DNA of 52,563 bases from Planctomycetota bacterium (GCA_026991575.1 JALXBF010000115.1:1-52563); one strand, 5' to 3'; counted from the stretch's first letter, positions 15,210 to 52,563 are shown. The notes: a model not told the origin generated them from the sequence alone. Program-made: numbers and translations.

Positions 15210-15575
15210 GCTGCCGGTCCGCCCAGGCGAACTCCGCGTTGGGGGGAAGTCTCAGGTTTTTTGCGGACCCGCTCTTGGGACGGGTCGTTGCGAAGCAGTG
15301 CCGGAAACGGCCTTGGGAGTAGCCCCGGGCGCGTGTGGCCGTGCGGATTCCGCTTCCCAGCCCTGTCGGATGACCGACCGAGGAAAAGCCTCGCGCTCGC
15401 CCGTGTGCGCAAGCGATAGCACGAAACCACCTTCTGGCTGCCCGTAAACCTGACGGTCACGCTCGCCGCGCCAGCGGGACACAGCCGGGCCCTGCTTTTG
15501 CTGCTATCGCCCTCTCCGCATCGGAAGGCCAGATTGCTCCCTGCGGTGACTATCCCCGGCGAGCACCCCCGTGCC

Positions 15576-15619
15576 AAAAGAAAAACGCCCGCTGGCCGGC
15601 AACCATTGCCGGCCAGCGG
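15576..15619 (-). terminator. Intrinsic terminator downstream of tmRNA
   Basis: 14-bp stem CCGCTGGCCGGCAA/TTGCCGGCCAGCGG with a 3-nt loop (15589-15619), followed after a short spacer by TTTTTCTTTT on the minus strand. Confidence 0.85.
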
Positions 15620-15632
15620 ACGCGGTCGTCAG

Positions 15633-15992
15633 TGGAGGCGGCGGGAATCGAACCCGCGTCCCGCGACAGCTCGGTGAGGGCTTCTACGTGCGTAGCCGGT
15701 CTAGTTCGTCTCGCCCAGCCGGCTCTGACCGGCAAGAGCACAGCTGAGCCAGTCCGGAGTGGTTTCTCGTCGGAGCCTCCCCGGACACCGGCTCCGACCA
15801 GCCCGGTTCACGGCCTCTTGCAGGTTCCCCCGGGCGAAGGATCCTGCAGAGGGGCTACGTGTTTCGCTTACGCAGCCAGAGCATAAGAAGGAGTCGCACT
15901 TATTGTGCAGTCGGCTTGATAACGGGGCCTGCCGACCAACCCCGGCACGCCACCTCTCACCTCGTCTGCCCGGTCGATACCAATTCGCCCCC
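15633..15992 (-). ncRNA. ssrA: tmRNA (one-piece), tag reading frame (A)ATPSYALAA*
   Basis: 5' GGGGGCG..TATCGAC, 3' T-arm GCGGGTTCGATTCCCGC and acceptor CGCCTCCA with a G.U pair. Internal ATAAGT-GCG resume context; tag at 15897-15868. Adjacent to smpB. Confidence 0.95.
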
Positions 15993-18151: not shown

Positions 18152-19468
18152 TCATCCGTACACGACCAACTTCTCCGTAAACGGAACAGCCATCCCCTCC
18201 TTGGAGCGGTGCCTGATGTACACGGCTCGATCACCTGGCCGACGAACGGAAACGTACATCTCGATGGTCATCTCCTTGGTGCCGGGAGTCAGATCGACCA
18301 CGACCTGACCCTCCGGGACGTTGCTAAGCCACTGATCTCTTAGCCCTTGCTGAGCCTCCACGAGCCGATCAGGGCTATCGAACTCGCAGAACACCCAGCG
18401 AGGTGACCGGGCAATCAAGCCTCTGGAGAAGCGTGCCACAAGGTCCCGAATCTCCTCGGCCTTCTGCCTCATGTTCTGCGTGTACAGCAGCAGCACCCGG
18501 TCCGGCTGTGTGGCGACGACGCTATAGAAAGCCGAAGCAGCGTTGCCGCTGGCGATCGTGACCAGCGTGTCCGCCGACTGCTGGCCCGTCTGCTGCAGCC
18601 ACTGCTCCCGCAACGCTGCAGCAACGCGGGGCATTACGACCCGCTGATAGTACGCCCTGGCTTTCTCATACTGTCCGGACGAAATCAGACGATCGAAGTA
18701 CTTTTGATGCTCTTGCGGCGGGGCGTCGGCTCGCGGGGCGGGCGGAAAGAGGTCCTTGCACGCCCGGAGCACCTCCCGAAGATCACGGTGCCGGCAGCTT
18801 AGCGAAACGATCTTCAACTCAGCACCCAGTTCTGCGCGCTTCCGCTCCGCTTCTTCTCGATTGAGCTCCGGAACCAGCAGTCGCTCTGCGCCGAGCTCCA
18901 CCGCAAGCTCGACCTTCTGAGGGATTCCCTTCACCGGAAGCACGCCAGACTCAGGGGACCACTCACCCGTGGCAAGACAGCGCAGCGGAGCCTCCAGCGT
19001 ATCCGCAACATCCAACAACGCGATCGCCGCGGGAACCCACCCGGACTCCCATCGCACCAGACTTGCGTCTGTCAGCAGCTCCACCGCCTCTTTCGATACC
19101 CCCTCGGGGGCACATAGGCGCCAGCCAGGCACGTCGAGGCTTCGGCTGACGCGGTCACCGAACGGCAGCACCAGACCGTCATCAGCTGCACCCGCCCGGC
19201 GCCACACAACCGGCAGCGCAATAGCCTGCCGCAGCAGCGGCACCTCCGCCAGCAGCACAAACAGAATCGCAGTGCGCCCTTCCCCGGTTGCTTCGGCCAG
19301 GTCCATCCTGTGGCTGTTGCCAAAGAGTTCATCCAGCCGGCGGAGCGCAGCCGGACACAAGATCCAGACACTCCACGGGCCGAAGGCTCGGGCAACCTGC
19401 GTTAACCGGCCCGGGGTCAACGCATCCAGTTCGGTATCGACTAGACGCAAGAGATCCGATCGAGTCAT
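18152..19468 (-). CDS. Lon-type (S16) protease domain fused to a C-terminal CARF-like domain, no AAA+ module (copy 1)
   Basis: WESGWVPAAIALL...LATGEW...GVLPVKGIPQKVELA..LGAERLLVPELN. Ser codon 19043-19045 and Lys codon 18914-18916 are 43 residues apart. The C-terminal ~140 aa has TLVTIASG..PDRVLLLYT..VVVDLTPGTK..AVYI. Start could be GTG 19540. Confidence 0.8.
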   Translation of the reverse strand: MTRSDLLRLVDTELDALTPGRLTQVARAFGPWSVWILCPAALRRLDELFGNSHRMDLAEATGEGRTAILFVLLAEVPLLRQAIALPVVWRRAGAADDGLVLPFGDRVSRSLDVPGWRLCAPEGVSKEAVELLTDASLVRWESGWVPAAIALLDVADTLEAPLRCLATGEWSPESGVLPVKGIPQKVELAVELGAERLLVPELNREEAERKRAELGAELKIVSLSCRHRDLREVLRACKDLFPPAPRADAPPQEHQKYFDRLISSGQYEKARAYYQRVVMPRVAAALREQWLQQTGQQSADTLVTIASGNAASAFYSVVATQPDRVLLLYTQNMRQKAEEIRDLVARFSRGLIARSPRWVFCEFDSPDRLVEAQQGLRDQWLSNVPEGQVVVDLTPGTKEMTIEMYVSVRRPGDRAVYIRHRSKEGMAVPFTEKLVVYG

Positions 19469-19584
19469 CGGAGTGCTCTTGCTCCGCTTCGATTGTTCCC
19501 CCGTTGTCGCCGGCGACAGCTCTCGTCCTCGAGATACCACTCGCCGGCCACCCCCGTGCGCTTACTGTCGTTACGCCAACAGTG

Positions 19585-20757
19585 TCAGCCTGTCGATTCA
19601 GGCCTCTCGTCCTGTTCGACCACACGCTGGGCTTCGCGCAGGGCGTCCAGGTCCGGCGGCCACTCCAGCGGCTCTGTTCCCGGTATGCTCACCTCAAGCC
19701 GCACCGGGGTGTCTTCAGCCAGTTGCCGGCGAAGTTCACGGACTGAGAACGAACAACGGCCTGATTCGTCGATGGTGGTCGTGACGCCGGCCAGTCGAAC
19801 CAGGCCCCCGGCCAGTTCCGTCGCCTCACTGCCGTCCGAATGGCGCACGAACAGCATTCGGATCTCGTCTTCGTCGCTCAGCGGATAACGGATTCTGCTC
19901 TCGGCACGGTACCGCCGCTGTGGATCGTGCCAGACGAGCCAGACCGGGATCCCGGTTCCGCGAGCAGCGGCTCGCACGGTGATGAGACCTGGCGGAAAAC
20001 GGGGATACTCCGGCTCGGGCCGTGGGGGCTCCATTGCGTAGACTACCGCTTCCGCCTCTGCGGCGGTGGCAGCGGCTGCCGTGAGCCGAGCGGTTAGCTG
20101 CTGCAGATCGCGTTCAACGTCACGTGCCAGGGCCTCGGCTGCTTCATCCAGGCCCGGCCCCAGCCACCACGGGGTCTCGTGGGCGTACTCGGGCACGATC
20201 GCGTCGCGCCAGCGCTTCAGCAGCGGGTTGCCGCGAACGGTGCACAAAACGTCGACCTGCTCACGCAGCGCTCGGTCGTACTCATTGAGCGCATCAGTCA
20301 GGCGCCCGACCAGCCCCAGGAACTCCTCATCGGTCACTTCCCCTGCGTCGACCGCCTCAAGCAGTCTGTGTGTCAGCCCGGTATAGACCGCCTGGGCTTC
20401 CATGCGGTTGACGAGCGCGTCCAGACAGAGCTGTTCGCGCCGGGTGAAGTCCTCTTCCGCATCCCACTGCTGGCCGAGCTTACGGGCCTGGTCGGCAAAC
20501 GCCAGAAAGGCTTCGGTGGCTTGGGCCGTACCTAGTCGAACCAGGTGCAACGGGATCTGGCCAGGCAGCTGGTCCTGGGCAACCCCGAACAGAAGACACT
20601 CGCCCAGTGCTCGGGCCGCCGTGTAAGCGACGCGACGAGCCTCTGCGTCGTCCGTGGTCGGTTCGGTCACGGCCTGGTGTCGGAGTGCCTCAGCCAGTTC
20701 CCGTAACGGGGAAGCCGTCAATTGTTCACGCAGTCGCTGGATCTCTTCTGTGTTCAT
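19585..20757 (-). CDS. Uncharacterised protein, putative anti-sigma factor/protease substrate (copy 1)
   Basis: Long ORF with GGAG RBS lying between the sigma-like and Lon-CARF genes. Its C-terminal domain is visibly homologous to that of 50959-52140. Function is inferred from context only. Confidence 0.6.
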   Translation of the reverse strand: MNTEEIQRLREQLTASPLRELAEALRHQAVTEPTTDDAEARRVAYTAARALGECLLFGVAQDQLPGQIPLHLVRLGTAQATEAFLAFADQARKLGQQWDAEEDFTRREQLCLDALVNRMEAQAVYTGLTHRLLEAVDAGEVTDEEFLGLVGRLTDALNEYDRALREQVDVLCTVRGNPLLKRWRDAIVPEYAHETPWWLGPGLDEAAEALARDVERDLQQLTARLTAAAATAAEAEAVVYAMEPPRPEPEYPRFPPGLITVRAAARGTGIPVWLVWHDPQRRYRAESRIRYPLSDEDEIRMLFVRHSDGSEATELAGGLVRLAGVTTTIDESGRCSFSVRELRRQLAEDTPVRLEVSIPGTEPLEWPPDLDALREAQRVVEQDERPESTG

Positions 20758-21023
20758 GGCTGCTCCGGCGGAAAATCCGCGTTTCCAAGACAAACCGTTC
20801 CAAACCAACCGGTCGGGGTCAGTTCAGCCACTGCCTCTGCCTGCATTTGTTACGACCCAGGGCGCAGACTCCTGACAGGAACCAGCCGCCACGTCTGCCG
20901 GGAGTCGCCGGCGGAGCCGGTCGCTTCCGGTCCTTGCCAGCCTGCCGGTACCATGGGCGGCGGCATGTGCACGTCGTGCTTCCGTCACGATGGCTGCCTC
21001 TGGGGTAACGTGACCGGTGCGCG

Positions 21024-21791
21024 TCAGCCGCGCAAGTTCTCGCGGAGTTCCTGAATCGCTTTAAGCTGCAGGAGATATCGCTTCTTCCGGCTCCACACGG
21101 CGTGCACCACAGCGGGGGAAACGCCTAGTTCCTGAGCCAGCGCCGTAGCGCGTCCGTGTTCCCACCCGGGATGGTCCAGATGAGGGGGTGGAAAGGATGC
21201 CGGGAGCTTGGCTTCGCTGCACCACTGGGCCCACACGACCGCTGGCACCTTGCGGTGCATTCCGGCCAGCACAAGCAGGATGATCCGGTCGCGTACCGGG
21301 ACCGACGCGAGAACTTCCAGGTCGTGCTGGCAAAACGGCTCGTTGCGTGCGGCGGTTTCGGCCGGTCCTGGAGCCGGGTCGTGCGGATCAAGGTGCGGGG
21401 CAGAACCGCCGTCATCGTGTTTGCGACCACCGCCGGTTGCAAGCTGCTCCCAGGACAGCTCTCGTCTTCTTTTCTTGACGAGATCGAGCAGGGCATTCTT
21501 CAGCACCCGGCGCGCCCAACCGACGAAGGGACTGCCGGCGCTGGGATTGTACGCTCCCTGCAGTACCTTCACCATCGCGTCCTGAACAACGTCCTCAAGC
21601 GTGGCGTCGTCGAAGCGGTTGCCGAAATGCAGTGCGTTCAGCATTCGCGACACCTGCATGAGCGCGTCGCGTACCCGGAGCGCAGCCGCGTCCTCTTGAT
21701 GCGGTGAAGCAGTTGGGTTGAGCAAAGTGGATACGGCAGCGTGTAACGCCGTTTGCTGCCCGGATGTCTGTTGCCCTTGACCCGCTGCCAT
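21024..21791 (-). CDS. ECF-like sigma-70 family sigma factor (copy 1)
   Basis: Region 2: LEDVVQDAMVKVL..YNPSAGSPFVGWARRVLKNALLDLVKKRRR. Region 4-like: LASVPVRDRIILL and ALAQELGVSPAVVHAVWSRKKRYL. Start could be GTG 21803. Confidence 0.8.
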   Translation of the reverse strand: MAAGQGQQTSGQQTALHAAVSTLLNPTASPHQEDAAALRVRDALMQVSRMLNALHFGNRFDDATLEDVVQDAMVKVLQGAYNPSAGSPFVGWARRVLKNALLDLVKKRRRELSWEQLATGGGRKHDDGGSAPHLDPHDPAPGPAETAARNEPFCQHDLEVLASVPVRDRIILLVLAGMHRKVPAVVWAQWCSEAKLPASFPPPHLDHPGWEHGRATALAQELGVSPAVVHAVWSRKKRYLLQLKAIQELRENLRG

Positions 21792-21996
21792 TGGAACTCC
21801 CACGTTCTCTCAGCGCAACCGTCCGCATCAGTGAGTACAAGCCGGGGGTTCAGCGTGCCACCACAGAGGCTGGCCACGCGATCGGCTGCCCTGTCGCGGC
21901 CGACAGCAACAGCAGGCCGTTCCCGGGTGCCCGACTGCCTGTCTCGCGGGCGTGACGCGTTCGGGTTTGCTTGCCCCGCGACCGAAGGCGCCCGCT

Positions 21997-48004: not shown

Positions 48005-49483
48005 ATGAACCACTTCCGTACTGCTGTTCGCCAGGTCGCGCCGGACAGAACATCTGGTCGACGCACAATGCATGGGGTCACGATTTCAAGGGAGACGTTC
48101 GATTCCCTCGCGGAGCTTGCCGAAGAATACGGCCGTCGTCCCCGGTTGCGGCCATACATCGCAGAGAAGGCCTGTGATCTGGTGCAAGCCTTCGCTCCGT
48201 GGTGGCTAACGGCCGAGGCCCTGGCACAGGCCAGCCGCAGTGGTACTCCGCCCGCAGATGCGGTGGATCCTGCAAGGTTCACCACTCACGGCCTGGCCCG
48301 CATCCTTTGCCTGTGGCCGACGGCACTGGCCGCGACCATCGAACGAACGGCACCCGCGCGGGACGGTGCTCGCTTGTTACGCGACGCTTGCGTCTTGCCC
48401 GTGCGGTGGGTTCTTGGTGCTTCGCGGCCTGTCAATCCTCTTCCCGATCCACTGGCTCAACTCGCTGAGACTGTCCGATGCGAACTACGGGAAGTCGGCC
48501 TGTTGGCGCACGGCCAGGAAGTCACCCTGGAGTGGTGCCTGGGCCCCTATCGCTTGAAGAGCCCCATCGAGTTCTGTGATGTACAGCTAAGTCTTGCGTC
48601 CGGCTTCGTCCCTTTGGCCTCGGCACTGATTGTGGCAGCGAACGGAGGCGAGCCTGCCGTGGGCGTGTGGTCCACGGGAGCGTGGAACGCGGAGTTCAAC
48701 TTTTGCGAGAACGTGGACGGCGTGCCGCAAAAGGTGCGGACAGCGCTTTCGTTTGGTGCCGAACACGTTTTCGTCCCCTCCGGAAACTACCACGAAGCAG
48801 CAAGGGAAGCAGCCAGGCCCGAGCAGGTGCATGCGCTGGCCGTGGGGCCATCGCTGGACCGAGTGCTCGCGCCGCTGTTGGTGGCCTATCGGGCAGAGCC
48901 ACCTGCCAACGCCTCCTACGAGGAGAAACGCGCGTACTACGTGTACACAGCCGAGTACGATCCGTCGCGCGCACGACGGTACTACGACCGGGCACTCCTG
49001 GAAGACGTCGCGGCCCGAGTGACGCAACGGATGGATGCCCAGCTTTGCTCGCTTGTGGAAGGCCGCTGCGCTCTGGTAACCGTGGCCAGCCAGAGTCCAG
49101 GTGTCGTGTTGCTGGCGGCTTTGGTATTCCGCCCTTGCCGAATCGTGCTCGTGTACGACGATGCGCAGGCCGCCAAGCAGGTGAATGACGAACTGAGGCA
49201 ACGCGGTTACAGCAACGTGGTATGCCTGAGGCTGGACGAAGACCATTTGGGCACAGTGAGGCAGCTCGCCGCAAAGATCAACGAGTGCACAGCGGGCCTG
49301 CCTGTCATCATTGACCTGACTCCGGGTAGCAAGAGCCACACGCTTGCGCTCTACCGGGCACCTGTACAACGGGCCCATCGCGTCTATCTGAGGAACCGCT
49401 GGACCCAGCCGTCCCGAAAGGGGGCGCGGGGGATCGAGGACCCCGACACGATGCAATACGTGACGGTGACAGACGACCAGTAG
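48005..49483 (+). CDS. Lon-type (S16) protease domain fused to a C-terminal CARF-like domain, no AAA+ module (copy 2)
   Basis: LASGFVPLASALI...WSTGAW...VDGVPQKVRTA..FGAEHVFVPSGN. Ser codon 48599-48601 and Lys codon 48731-48733 are 44 residues apart. C-terminal ALVTVASQ..PCRIVLVY..IIDLTPGSK..RVYL. Start may be ATG 48068. Confidence 0.78.
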   Translation: MNHFRTAVRQVAPDRTSGRRTMHGVTISRETFDSLAELAEEYGRRPRLRPYIAEKACDLVQAFAPWWLTAEALAQASRSGTPPADAVDPARFTTHGLARILCLWPTALAATIERTAPARDGARLLRDACVLPVRWVLGASRPVNPLPDPLAQLAETVRCELREVGLLAHGQEVTLEWCLGPYRLKSPIEFCDVQLSLASGFVPLASALIVAANGGEPAVGVWSTGAWNAEFNFCENVDGVPQKVRTALSFGAEHVFVPSGNYHEAAREAARPEQVHALAVGPSLDRVLAPLLVAYRAEPPANASYEEKRAYYVYTAEYDPSRARRYYDRALLEDVAARVTQRMDAQLCSLVEGRCALVTVASQSPGVVLLAALVFRPCRIVLVYDDAQAAKQVNDELRQRGYSNVVCLRLDEDHLGTVRQLAAKINECTAGLPVIIDLTPGSKSHTLALYRAPVQRAHRVYLRNRWTQPSRKGARGIEDPDTMQYVTVTDDQ

Positions 49484-49573
49484 CTGCTGGTGCCACGGCC
49501 TCCAGAGGCTACGGGATCGACTGCTGGGACACCAGAACGGGGTGGCGTCGGTAGCGTAGCAGAGCAGAAGGTG

Positions 49574-50605
49574 ATGAGTGAGACCACACTTTACGGCTAC
49601 ACCTGCGAACAGTTGCAGAATCTCATCACGCGCGCCCGCAGCCTGGAAGACAACGACGCAGTCAGCGAGTTGCAGGGGCTGCTGACGAGGCTCGTGGAGA
49701 GTTTCCTCACGGGAGTTCCAGTGCCCCCCGGTCATTCCAGCGTAGAGTTCCAGAAATTCTTGGCGTTAGAGATCGTCCAAGAGCTCCTCTGCCATATCGT
49801 CTGGCCGCGGTCAGACGGTCGATACGCTTTCGACATCGGAAAAATGGACTCTGTCGACTCGCTGCGGGCGTGGGTCAGGGAGTGCGTGCGGCGGTGGCGC
49901 CGCAGGCAAGGCAGCGAGCGCCGCGTGAAACGGTTCACGGATCTGAAACGGGACGACAACGACGACGACACGGAACCGCCCAGCGTCAGTTTGGTTGATC
50001 CGAAGAGTCGACACCCGGTCGAAGCGATCGAACCGGACCCTCCGGCCCGGTACGTGTCCATCATGGGGTGCCTTTTTGATATCACCCAGTGGGCCGCGAG
50101 GCGACTGGCCAGCAAGAAATCGCTTGCGCAGGAATGGGTTGTTCGCTATTGGTTGTACGTCCGGCTGCGCTTGTACCAGCTGCTCTGTCGCCATGAGGAG
50201 AAGACGGTACGGCGCCCCTTGATTCTCCGCCTGGCCGAACGGTACATACCGTGGGATCCAGCCGTGGAGAACGTACCGTTGGCCAGGGACTGGCCAACGC
50301 TGGGGATGTGCTGGCAAGGCTTCGCCCGCCGAGCGGAAAGGCAGGAGACCTACGCGCAAACCTGCCTCATTGAGACCGTGTACGACCATCGCGCAGCGCA
50401 GGAGCCTTTCTCGGCTACGGACGAAGAGGCGGTGAAGAGAGCGATTCGAAATCAATGGGACCAGTGGTGCAGCCGGCTGCGCCGGCACCTCAAGGAGGCA
50501 GTAAGCGGTGTCTGCCCCTGGCACGAACCGGACGATACTCAACGCCAGGCTATGGAACTCTGGCACGCCGTTGCCTTTGGGGTACCGGAACGAGCCACCG
50601 AGTGA
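49574..50605 (+). CDS. Highly divergent ECF-like sigma factor (copy 2)
   Basis: Region-2-like EIVQELL..AFD..SLRAWVRECVRRWRRR, acidic linker, and C-terminal NQWDQWCSRLRRHL resembling copy-1 AVWSRKKRYL; same module context. Confidence 0.55.
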   Translation: MSETTLYGYTCEQLQNLITRARSLEDNDAVSELQGLLTRLVESFLTGVPVPPGHSSVEFQKFLALEIVQELLCHIVWPRSDGRYAFDIGKMDSVDSLRAWVRECVRRWRRRQGSERRVKRFTDLKRDDNDDDTEPPSVSLVDPKSRHPVEAIEPDPPARYVSIMGCLFDITQWAARRLASKKSLAQEWVVRYWLYVRLRLYQLLCRHEEKTVRRPLILRLAERYIPWDPAVENVPLARDWPTLGMCWQGFARRAERQETYAQTCLIETVYDHRAAQEPFSATDEEAVKRAIRNQWDQWCSRLRRHLKEAVSGVCPWHEPDDTQRQAMELWHAVAFGVPERATE

Positions 50606-50958
50606 GTCGTAAAACGTTGAAGATGCCCCGGGGCGGTCTCAGCCGCGTTGCGCTTCCGTGTCAACAGCACTCGGCCCGGAAGGGTCAGAGCCGGTGGCAA
50701 CGATTGGACACCGCCTCTGCGGGTGGCCAGCATGGTTGGGAACCCGCCAGGAGGACCGGCGAGCGGTGTCGCATGAGGCCGTGGTCACGCTGAGGCGTCG
50801 AGTGGGAGCACGGCTGATGCGTCAGAAAACGCCGCGCTCTGCCCTATGAGGATGGAGAGGTGTACTGCCGGGCCTGCCCCGGCCTCTTCACGGTTCGGAA
50901 GGAGCCGGCCAAGTGTTATCAGACGTGGAAGGATCGTTACAGAGCGGAGCGACACAAG

Positions 50959-52140
50959 ATGGCTTCAATGAGAGTCGAGGCACAGCTGGCACGCCTGCAC
51001 AGCGAGTTCAACGTAGTCCTGCCCGATCCGGCCCGTTTGCTGCGCTGCTGGATCACAGAGTTCACGGAACTGTTGCCCAGGTTGCCCGAAGCGCTTGATG
51101 GGGACGATCCCACAGTTGCGCGGCGGCTGCTTACGTCCTGGGCTCGTCTCATGCGTGCCAAGCCCGCGCTTGTTGCGGCGGCTGCCGGCAGGCCACCTGA
51201 GCCAGGCGGGGGGGTGGCAGAGCAACTCGGGCTTCCGGAGCTGGCCGCGTGGGAGAGGCGTCTGCGAGATGAGCACATGGCGGCACTCGTTGAGAGGGCG
51301 AAGGCCACGGCCAACCCGAAGGCCTGGTCGGAGAGGCTCCAGGTGCTTCGCCGCGCCGTGGATGCGGCCGAGGAACCTGAGGACCTGCCGGATCGTACCG
51401 TCGAGCTTCTCAACGATCTGGACGAGCAGGAACTCCTCGACGCCTGCGCCGTGTACGCAGGCAGAACCGACCTGTCCTCGGAGGCGCTACTCGGTGTGCT
51501 CCGGGCTGCGGTGTGCGCGGAGGTTGACCTGTTCCTGCCGGCACGCGAGTACGTTCTTGAGGTCGCCCAAACACTACCGGGTGAACCCACGCACGCGGCG
51601 TTCGCTCCAACGTACTCGAAGTTCGAAGCGATCCTGGACGAGATTCTGGCAGCTGAACTGTTCGCCGAGGGACCGGCCGCGCCATCCTGGTTCCGAACCG
51701 AGCAACTCTTGGCCGAGACCATGCTGATCGGGATTGTCGCCGCCCTGCTGGAAGCGTATCGAGCCCAGCGGCCGGCGGTCCTGGCCGCTGCTGGTGAAGC
51801 CGAACGCGAAGAGTACCGCTCGGCACTCTGGCTCAGCCCTGATAAGCGGTTTGTGGCGCAACTGAGATGGGCACCTGCGGATGCGGCGCGACGCAAGCTG
51901 CCGATCCTCTTTCGCCACGCCTCGATGGTCCAGCGGCAAGTAGTACCGACAGATGCTGCCAGTGAGCTGGCGGGTGCCCGCGTTGAGTTCGCCGGTGCGA
52001 CGGCCGTCATCGACGAGCAGGCGACGGCCTGGTTTGACGTGGATGCGCTTGCGCCGGTCGAGAAAGAGCGAAGCTGGCAACTTGCCCGGCTGGTCGTGCG
52101 CCGCAACGGAACGACAGAGACGTGGACTTTGACCAAGTAG
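50959..52140 (+). CDS. Uncharacterised protein, putative anti-sigma factor/protease substrate (copy 2)
   Basis: Long ORF. C-terminal LAAAG..LWLSPDKRF..ILFRH..ASELAGARVEFAG..IDEQ..F matches the C-terminus of 19585-20757. Confidence 0.6.
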   Translation: MASMRVEAQLARLHSEFNVVLPDPARLLRCWITEFTELLPRLPEALDGDDPTVARRLLTSWARLMRAKPALVAAAAGRPPEPGGGVAEQLGLPELAAWERRLRDEHMAALVERAKATANPKAWSERLQVLRRAVDAAEEPEDLPDRTVELLNDLDEQELLDACAVYAGRTDLSSEALLGVLRAAVCAEVDLFLPAREYVLEVAQTLPGEPTHAAFAPTYSKFEAILDEILAAELFAEGPAAPSWFRTEQLLAETMLIGIVAALLEAYRAQRPAVLAAAGEAEREEYRSALWLSPDKRFVAQLRWAPADAARRKLPILFRHASMVQRQVVPTDAASELAGARVEFAGATAVIDEQATAWFDVDALAPVEKERSWQLARLVVRRNGTTETWTLTK

Positions 52141-52215: not shown

Positions 52216-52563
52216 CACGGCTGACGCACTTCAAATCGTGGGCAGGGAGCCCGTACAGAGCAGTTCTAGCAGATCGTTCGGGTTGGACGCGAGTCGCAAG
52301 CGAACGGAGTCAATGCTTTCCTCGGGACCGATTGCACCTCGGAGTAAGGACAACGCTAATCGGTTTACCAATGCCATATTCTGTGCCGACACGAGATGCC
52401 GAATGCGCATCTGGTCCTCGCGAAATGAAACATCCGAAACCCAGTGCAGCTGGTTCTCGATCGACCAGTGGTTTCGAATCACCTTCGCATGGAGCTCAGC
52501 ATCCGGCTCGGCGCTGGATACGTAGTAACGTACCTGCTCTGTCCTACGCCCAGACGACAGATG
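52216..52563 (-). mobile_element. ISAs1 family insertion sequence, 3' end (transposase C-terminus 52231->52563; probable terminal inverted repeat 52216-52228)
   Basis: RYYVSS..IRNHWSIENQLHWVSDVSFREDQMRIR signature of ISAs1 transposases. CACGGCTGACGCA just past the stop resembles ISAs1-type ends. Confidence 0.88.

Follow-up and report, generated by a model that had tools for sequence, protein, structure and literature searches.

Proteases that join a Lon domain to a CARF sensor (CARF-Lon) are predicted effectors of type III CRISPR systems. In the literature that we searched, largely without subscription journals or supplements, no CARF-Lon substrate is described, nor are the target and output of these proteases. 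What such a protease might cut is the question raised by a 52,563-nucleotide (nt) stretch of DNA from a Planctomycetota bacterium (GCA_026991575.1 JALXBF010000115.1:1-52563; guanine-cytosine (GC) content, 64.5%). This whole stretch, hereafter the window, carries two Lon-CARF protease genes (proteases A and B), each accompanied by a gene for a partner protein (partners A and B). A first-pass annotation had pointed out an Ala-Ala-Ala run at equivalent positions of the two partners, just ahead of a C-terminal domain that they share, and had proposed it as a cleavage site and cryptic degron. Translation and shared alignment columns bear out both the runs and their equivalence (Table 1). A hydrophobic residue followed by Ala-Ala, placed between the two domains, is a real and strongly conserved feature in about nine of ten relatives of these partners. 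Its retention in such distant relatives makes it a strong candidate for the cleavage site of the protease.

The CalpL-CalpT-CalpS type of pathway, from protease to anti-sigma factor to sigma factor, is already known; the CARF sensor and a partner not recognisably related to CalpT are what is new here. As far as the available text of two reports goes, CCaCalpL cuts CCaCalpT within LAAA, between A204 and A205, CalpS stays bound after cleavage alone in vitro, and the new LAA end is a C-degron in E. coli, which the A204D substitution abolishes; the same report cites VAA as the end exposed in RseA and LAA as the end of the ssrA tag (Smalakyte et al., 10.1101/2024.05.08.593097). SsCalpT is cut at VLRHVA/ST, the S1 pocket of SsCalpL admits Ala or Gly only, and the C-terminal fragment of SsCalpT remains on the protease after the cut (Rouillon et al., 10.1101/2021.12.06.471393).

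Conservation of the motif across the partner family

In an alignment of six sequences, the triplets of partners A and B share their columns, with the third Ala among the 25 columns that are invariant. Partner A has 10 residues, and partner B 12, separating the last Ala from the conserved Trp with which the shared C-terminal domain opens; the spacing of 8-11 residues given by the first-pass annotation holds for A and is slightly off for B. The triplet of partner B belongs to a stretch of 14 residues that its 56%-identical relative shares without change. In P0002, the database copy of partner A, residues 264-265 are the two Ala columns found throughout the family, and residue 263 belongs to the hydrophobic column before them.

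A family profile was searched against 1.84 billion cluster representatives (50% identity) and matched 428 representatives at E<=1e-3, 220 of them at E<=1e-10. The best 150 of the 428 were examined which, with the window's own copies, gave 152 proteins, 108 of them with the C-terminal domain. The 44 proteins lacking a C-domain match, many of them short or N-terminal only, were left out of the motif counts, as were the six seed sequences and matches missing the first three model positions. The motif was sought in a segment of 18 residues, at offsets -26 to -8 from the conserved Trp, and expected counts were taken from all other such segments of the same proteins. The first hidden Markov model (HMM) used to anchor the Trp contained the motif columns; the second was rebuilt from the Trp onward, which removes this circularity. 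A regex-based anchor was discarded because it chose the wrong Trp in many proteins.

Conservation among homologues, on which the first-pass annotation had staked its idea, is what these counts reveal. With the motif-free anchor and 92 non-seed relatives, AA occurs in 84 (28.3 expected), [LIVMF]AA in 72 (7.6 expected) and AAA in 52 (6.6 expected). The motif-including anchor, applied to 98 non-seed proteins, gives 90 with AA (30.5 expected), 76 with [LIVMF]AA (8.2) and 56 with AAA (6.9). The Ala frequency along the motif-free anchor has its maximum of 0.64 at offset -15, over a background of about 0.12. In a MAFFT alignment of the 108 sequences, the columns under A264 and A265 of P0002 each hold Ala in 96 of 107 proteins, the others having mainly Gly or Ser. 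The column preceding them is dominated by L (44), A (18), M (17) and V (13), and the one following by A (47), D (15), E (10) and K (8). The neighbouring linker columns are variable, unlike these two. When AA presence, read from the HMM-anchored Trp, was placed on a FastTree tree, the nine members without AA were dispersed among AA-bearing neighbours. A family sub-alignment (A12) retrieved 80 metagenome loci, whereas alignment A1 as query retrieved none; 29 partner open reading frames (ORFs) in these loci carry the C-terminal domain, and AA occurs in 19 of their 20 distinct linkers, some of which duplicate the family representatives.

Runs of Ala are common in DNA of this GC content, and the two triplets of the window might coincide by accident: Ala makes up 13-18% of partners A and B, and each has one further run of three (partner A, residues 244-246; partner B, residues 106-108). 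Chance is excluded because of the family-wide counts given above, and we grant it next to no weight. Two columns with 90% Ala stand in a family whose median pairwise identity is only 0.30, and the other Ala run of partner A sits in an insertion found in only 5-8 of the 108 aligned relatives.

An unannotated two-domain family

Partners A and B are paralogous members of an unannotated two-domain family. Pairwise methods find in common only their C-terminal ~90 residues, over which BLASTP aligns 76 residues at 32% identity (E 1e-5), and hhalign, comparing small family alignments of each, gives 93% probability over 93 columns. The family profile also recognises partner B, over positions 37-357 (E 1.4e-22). 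An AlphaFold2 model of partner A, computed from the 108-sequence alignment, has a predicted local distance difference test score (pLDDT) of 94 and a predicted template modelling score (pTM) of 0.71. In it, residues 1-242 of P0002 are all-helical, residues 243-269 form a coil linker and residues 270-384 fold into a beta domain with a closing helix. The shared beta-rich domain of the first-pass annotation is thus recovered both by these comparisons and, as a beta-sandwich, by the model. The ten-residue blocks 241-250 and 261-270 of the linker have mean pLDDT values of 67 and 72, compared with 94 overall, and the AAA at 263-265 lies in the coil, 4-5 residues ahead of the first beta strand.

This placement also bears on whether the motif is cut at all. 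It might be kept uncut, serving the linker as a hinge or in its packing, or holding the Lon active site of the resting complex as a pseudo-substrate, or it might be the site of another protease. At 4-5 residues from the first strand it could contact the C-terminal domain or the protease surface, and partners beside proteins other than Lon-CARF still show AMAAAEG or RIAAS. The model, however, places it in a coil of lowered confidence and not in a packed element; the Ala columns stay constant while the flanking linker columns vary; and the motif exactly matches proven CalpT cut motifs at an equivalent interdomain place, beside an intact Ser/Lys Lon domain. We regard an uncut role, or one for another protease, as quite improbable, and retain the motif as the candidate site of the Lon-CARF protease.

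Searches by name and by fold left the family without a known relative. No meaningful Pfam match was found in any of the 108 members, no partner relative was found in the PDB (by sequence profile) or the ESM Atlas, and 'hypothetical protein' was the sole name attached to the ten clusters that were looked up. With the whole model of partner A, Foldseek returned nothing from the PDB at E<=1e-3, and a wide fold search returned spectrin-like bundles only (Z up to 12, residues 67-177), which is in the noise range for helical proteins. With the model of the C-terminal domain, Foldseek likewise gave nothing at E<=1e-3, and the wide search gave CrdA as the best match (Z 6.1), followed by MG/Ig-like sandwiches at Z 4-5. 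No CalpT chain is among the fold matches listed for this domain, and a likeness may still exist.

The N-terminal domain also occurs with another C-terminus, ahead of other large proteins (L061 4791-8229, L068 4818-7941, L072 3188-7574 and L079 4815-10545). The large protein that follows has a weak CHAT match in L061 and is of the STAND-NTPase type in L068 and L079; another, of 1082 residues, has a weak Lon_C match. Two of these partner-like proteins keep Ala-Ala past the N-terminal domain, as AMAAAEG and RIAAS. Such loci suggest that the cassette has been combined with several sensor proteases.

Proteases and the conserved operon

Protease A matches the PADLOC model CARF_m2--CARF_LON, which joins a Lon S16 proteolytic domain to a C-terminal CARF domain (2.3e-81; positions 1-406 of the 408 in the model). 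Proteases A and B are 30% identical over 293 residues. The Lon part of the protease matches Lon protease domains in the PDB, and the CARF part matches Csm6, Cam1, Can2 and Card1. A candidate catalytic dyad, Ser166/Lys209 of the 462-residue ORF (Ser142/Lys185 of P0154), is invariant in a 10-sequence alignment and aligns with the catalytic Ser/Lys pair of the Archaeoglobus Lon domain (PDB 1z0e, 9e-11). The sensor domain is recognised by CARF models only and does not qualify as SAVED, and CalpL is absent from the 67 PDB sequences that the protease profile matched at E<=1.

Family members occupy a conserved operon of sigma factor, partner and Lon-CARF protease. Among the metagenome partners with at least 1000 nt of downstream sequence, a Lon-CARF gene follows on the same strand in 23 of 24; the 24th, L047, likewise has one, slightly beyond the distance window used. 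A homologue of the window's sigma factor lies upstream in all 17 partners with at least 2500 nt of upstream sequence. In most loci (most of L036-L115) a fourth conserved gene, for a protein of about 250 residues, stands between sigma factor and partner (for example, L019 11526-12308(-) and L012 4322-4948(+)); two copies that were scanned have no Pfam match, and none turned up in the genome of the window on an iterated search. In a sample of 400 other genomes of Planctomycetota, five have Lon-CARF (E<=1e-20) and three the partner (E<=1e-5); these three are all among the five, and in them the partner lies beside the protease. The proteases themselves, used as queries against genome contigs, led to two related loci only.

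At the second locus of the window, the gene separating protease B from partner B encodes a protein of 371 residues. A single relative of this protein was found, encoded upstream of the partner paralogue on contig C96. BLASTP of the sigma factor of the first locus against it gave no match, and hhalign against the sigma family gave a weak 17% probability; it may be sigma-like but highly divergent. An ORF at 52231-52563(-), directly downstream of partner B, runs past the end of the window.

Table 1 Positions of the features discussed, counted from the first nucleotide of the window
Feature	Position (nt)	Strand	Details
tmRNA gene	15632-15992	-	Called by ARAGORN; tag ATPSYALAA, ends ALAA
Lon-CARF protease A	18152-19540	-	462-aa ORF; database copy P0154, start Met25 (nt 19468)
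Partner A gene	19585-20808	-	Longest ORF 407 aa; database copy P0002, start Met18, 390 aa
C-terminal beta-sandwich domain of partner A and stop codon	19585-19950	-	Common to partner B
Interdomain linker of partner A	19951-20031	-	P0002 residues 243-269; coil in the model
AAA of partner A	19963-19971	-	Inside GLITVRAAARGT; residues 280-282 of the 407-aa ORF, 263-265 of P0002
N-terminal domain of partner A	20032-20757	-	From the likely start Met18; all-helical; putative sigma-binding (anti-sigma-like)
ECF-like sigma factor	21024-21803	-	Directly upstream of partner A; Pfam Sigma70_r2, 2.9e-9
Lon-CARF protease B	48005-49483	+	PADLOC CARF_m2--CARF_LON, 2.2e-67, model positions 8-392 of 408
371-aa protein	49490-50605	+	Between protease B and partner B; no Pfam or PADLOC match
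Partner B gene	50860-52140	+	Longest ORF 426 aa; database copy P0006, 393 aa, start nt 50959
AAA of partner B	51784-51792	+	Inside PAVLAAAGEA; residues 309-311 of the 426-aa ORF
C-terminal domain of partner B	Starts about 51820	+	
aa, amino acids; tmRNA, transfer-messenger RNA.

Host genome

The tmRNA tag predicted in the window ends in YALAA, as the first-pass annotation had read it, and ClpX is present in the host genome (594 bits, over the cut-off). A second, overlapping 'tmRNA*' call by ARAGORN at 15366-15723(-) has an implausible tag and is probably an artefact.

The genome holds three Lon-CARF genes and six partner paralogues. The third Lon-CARF gene, C183:32311-33606(+) (locus L004 7246-8670), has neither a partner nor a matching sigma gene adjoining it; about 22 kb from it, this contig also carries a Cas10/Cmr2 gene. 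Its neighbours include a divergent ECF sigma factor paired with a Ser/Thr-kinase-like protein, and a protein of 2408 residues. Four further partner paralogues have no adjacent Lon-CARF gene: C34:23632-24966(-), C117:4712-5848(+), C32:13220-14860(+) and C96:35080-36351(-). The C32 paralogue comes directly after type III-D cas genes (Cas5_IIId, Csm3 and Cas7_IIId) and ahead of an MkoA-like helicase, the C96 paralogue adjoins an RT-Cas1-like gene, and the C117 paralogue follows a CARF-HEPN (Csx1/Csm6-like) gene. No cas genes were found beside the two loci of the window, and the association with type III CRISPR is at the genome level only.

Proposed pathway and its alternatives

On balance, we think it somewhat probable that the window encodes a functional analogue of CalpL/CalpT/CalpS assembled from different parts, which would work through a cut followed by an AA degron. 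The partner family would be the dedicated substrate of CARF-Lon proteases, themselves putative sensors of the cyclic oligoadenylate (cOA) of type III CRISPR systems. Its helical N-terminal domain would hold the neighbouring ECF-like sigma factor, as synteny suggests, and its C-terminal beta-sandwich would, by analogy, tether the partner to the protease. The bond to be cut would lie at the hydrophobic-Ala-Ala(-Ala) of the exposed linker, where the P1 residue is small. First, cOA produced by the type III system would bind the CARF domain. The Lon domain would then cut the partner past the conserved Ala-Ala: in partner A most likely after A282 of the 407-residue ORF, leaving ...VRAAA, and in partner B so as to leave ...LAA or ...LAAA. 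ClpXP would next degrade the AA-ended N-terminal fragment while it still holds the sigma factor, the new end acting as an ssrA-like C-degron, and the sigma factor would finally be released. We infer the cut, its exact bond, the use of the degron, the docking and the binding of the sigma factor by analogy with the characterised systems.

The motif could also be the cut site of Lon-CARF and yet not be a degron, cleavage alone activating the output and the pattern reflecting the preferences of the S3-S1 subsites. A preference of the Lon domain for a small P1 residue could by itself explain the motif: as far as the available text goes, the S1 pocket of SsCalpL takes only Ala or Gly, and the HVA/S site of SsCalpT does not yield an AA end (10.1101/2021.12.06.471393). 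Members without AA keep small residues at this place (VSAS, LAGD and GGAPG), and the C34 paralogue has LVA-K. Two Ala columns at 90% each with a hydrophobic residue before them exceed, however, what a small P1 residue needs, and hydrophobic-Ala-Ala equals the last three residues of the host ssrA tag. CCaCalpT, moreover, did not let go of its sigma factor in vitro on cleavage alone, and in vivo the AA end was needed, according to the available text (10.1101/2024.05.08.593097). We judge cleavage without a degron to be less probable, though a real possibility, and continue with the cut-and-degron pathway.

Several observations weigh against that pathway. AA is lacking in 8 of the 92 relatives and in the C34 paralogue (P0004 type) with its LVA-K, and the most distant of the 428 representatives fall outside the motif counts. 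Ala makes up 15% of the family and the window is rich in GC, which raises the baseline for Ala pairs, an effect controlled in the counts. Partner A has Arg ahead of its triplet, so that cleavage would expose RAA or AAA and not LAA. No recognisable sigma factor lies adjacent to partner B at the second locus. The partner is, finally, not recognisably homologous to CalpT, and the analogy rests on context. Its C-terminal domain has no DUF2080 match by Pfam and finds generic beta-sandwiches only, and its N-terminal domain has no Pfam match. The MazF fold is a beta barrel; the N-terminal domain of the partner is all-helical in the model and therefore clearly not MazF-like, which sets it apart from CalpT.

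A wider proposal, which we offer tentatively and consider rather doubtful, is that the pair of sigma factor and partner is a portable cut-then-degrade module, independent of CalpT, that serves several sensor proteases and forms a branched network in this genome. The cassette is found beside Lon-CARF, the 1082-residue Lon_C protein, STAND-NTPase-type proteins and the CHAT-like protein, and the AA C-degron would be a convergent solution common to CalpT and RseA. The three Lon-CARF proteases and six partners might relay the cyclic-nucleotide alarms of CRISPR to several programmes of transcription; if so, branched CRISPR signalling would have a model in this network of paralogues.

Comparison with known systems

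Both proteases of the window match the predicted CARF-Lon effectors (PADLOC CARF_m2--CARF_LON) end to end. In its available part, a 2022 review (PMC9704534) offers only speculation on CARF-Lon, namely that it cuts proteins of the host or is promiscuous; the review gives it no dedicated substrate, no cleavage motif and no link to sigma factors. For these proteases we offer a candidate family of dedicated substrates (428 representatives), an operon that is conserved, a candidate scissile bond at the level of residues and a proposed AA-degron step leading to ClpXP. If the pathway is borne out, the design of protein switches triggered by cOA could also draw on the short hydrophobic-Ala-Ala linker.

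The system resembles CalpL/CalpT/CalpS in several respects. An ATPase-less Lon domain with a Ser/Lys dyad is fused to a sensor of the cOA type, a two-domain partner is encoded beside the protease and beside a sigma factor of the ECF-like kind, and type III CRISPR genes are present in the same genome. The partner has an Ala-rich motif in its interdomain linker, as does CalpT, for which the available text gives the cuts LAA/A (CCaCalpT; 10.1101/2024.05.08.593097) and HVA/S (SsCalpT; 10.1101/2021.12.06.471393); the AA end, here arising only after the putative cut, would resemble the ssrA degron. The sensor is CARF here, whereas it is SAVED in CalpL. The usual operon of the present family, though not the genome of the window, has a fourth gene between sigma factor and partner, and the loci of the window are not adjacent to cas genes. 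If the proposed pathway is correct, the logic of CalpT, in which cleavage of an anti-sigma factor uncovers a degron, would have arisen more than once, from proteins unrelated to each other.

The proposed pathway would likewise resemble RseA and the ssrA tag in that a cut anti-sigma factor would expose a C-terminal AA and pass the sigma-bound fragment to ClpXP. It would differ from RseA in its first cut, which would be made by a cytoplasmic, nucleotide-activated Lon protease, whereas RseA is cut by membrane site-1 and site-2 proteases.

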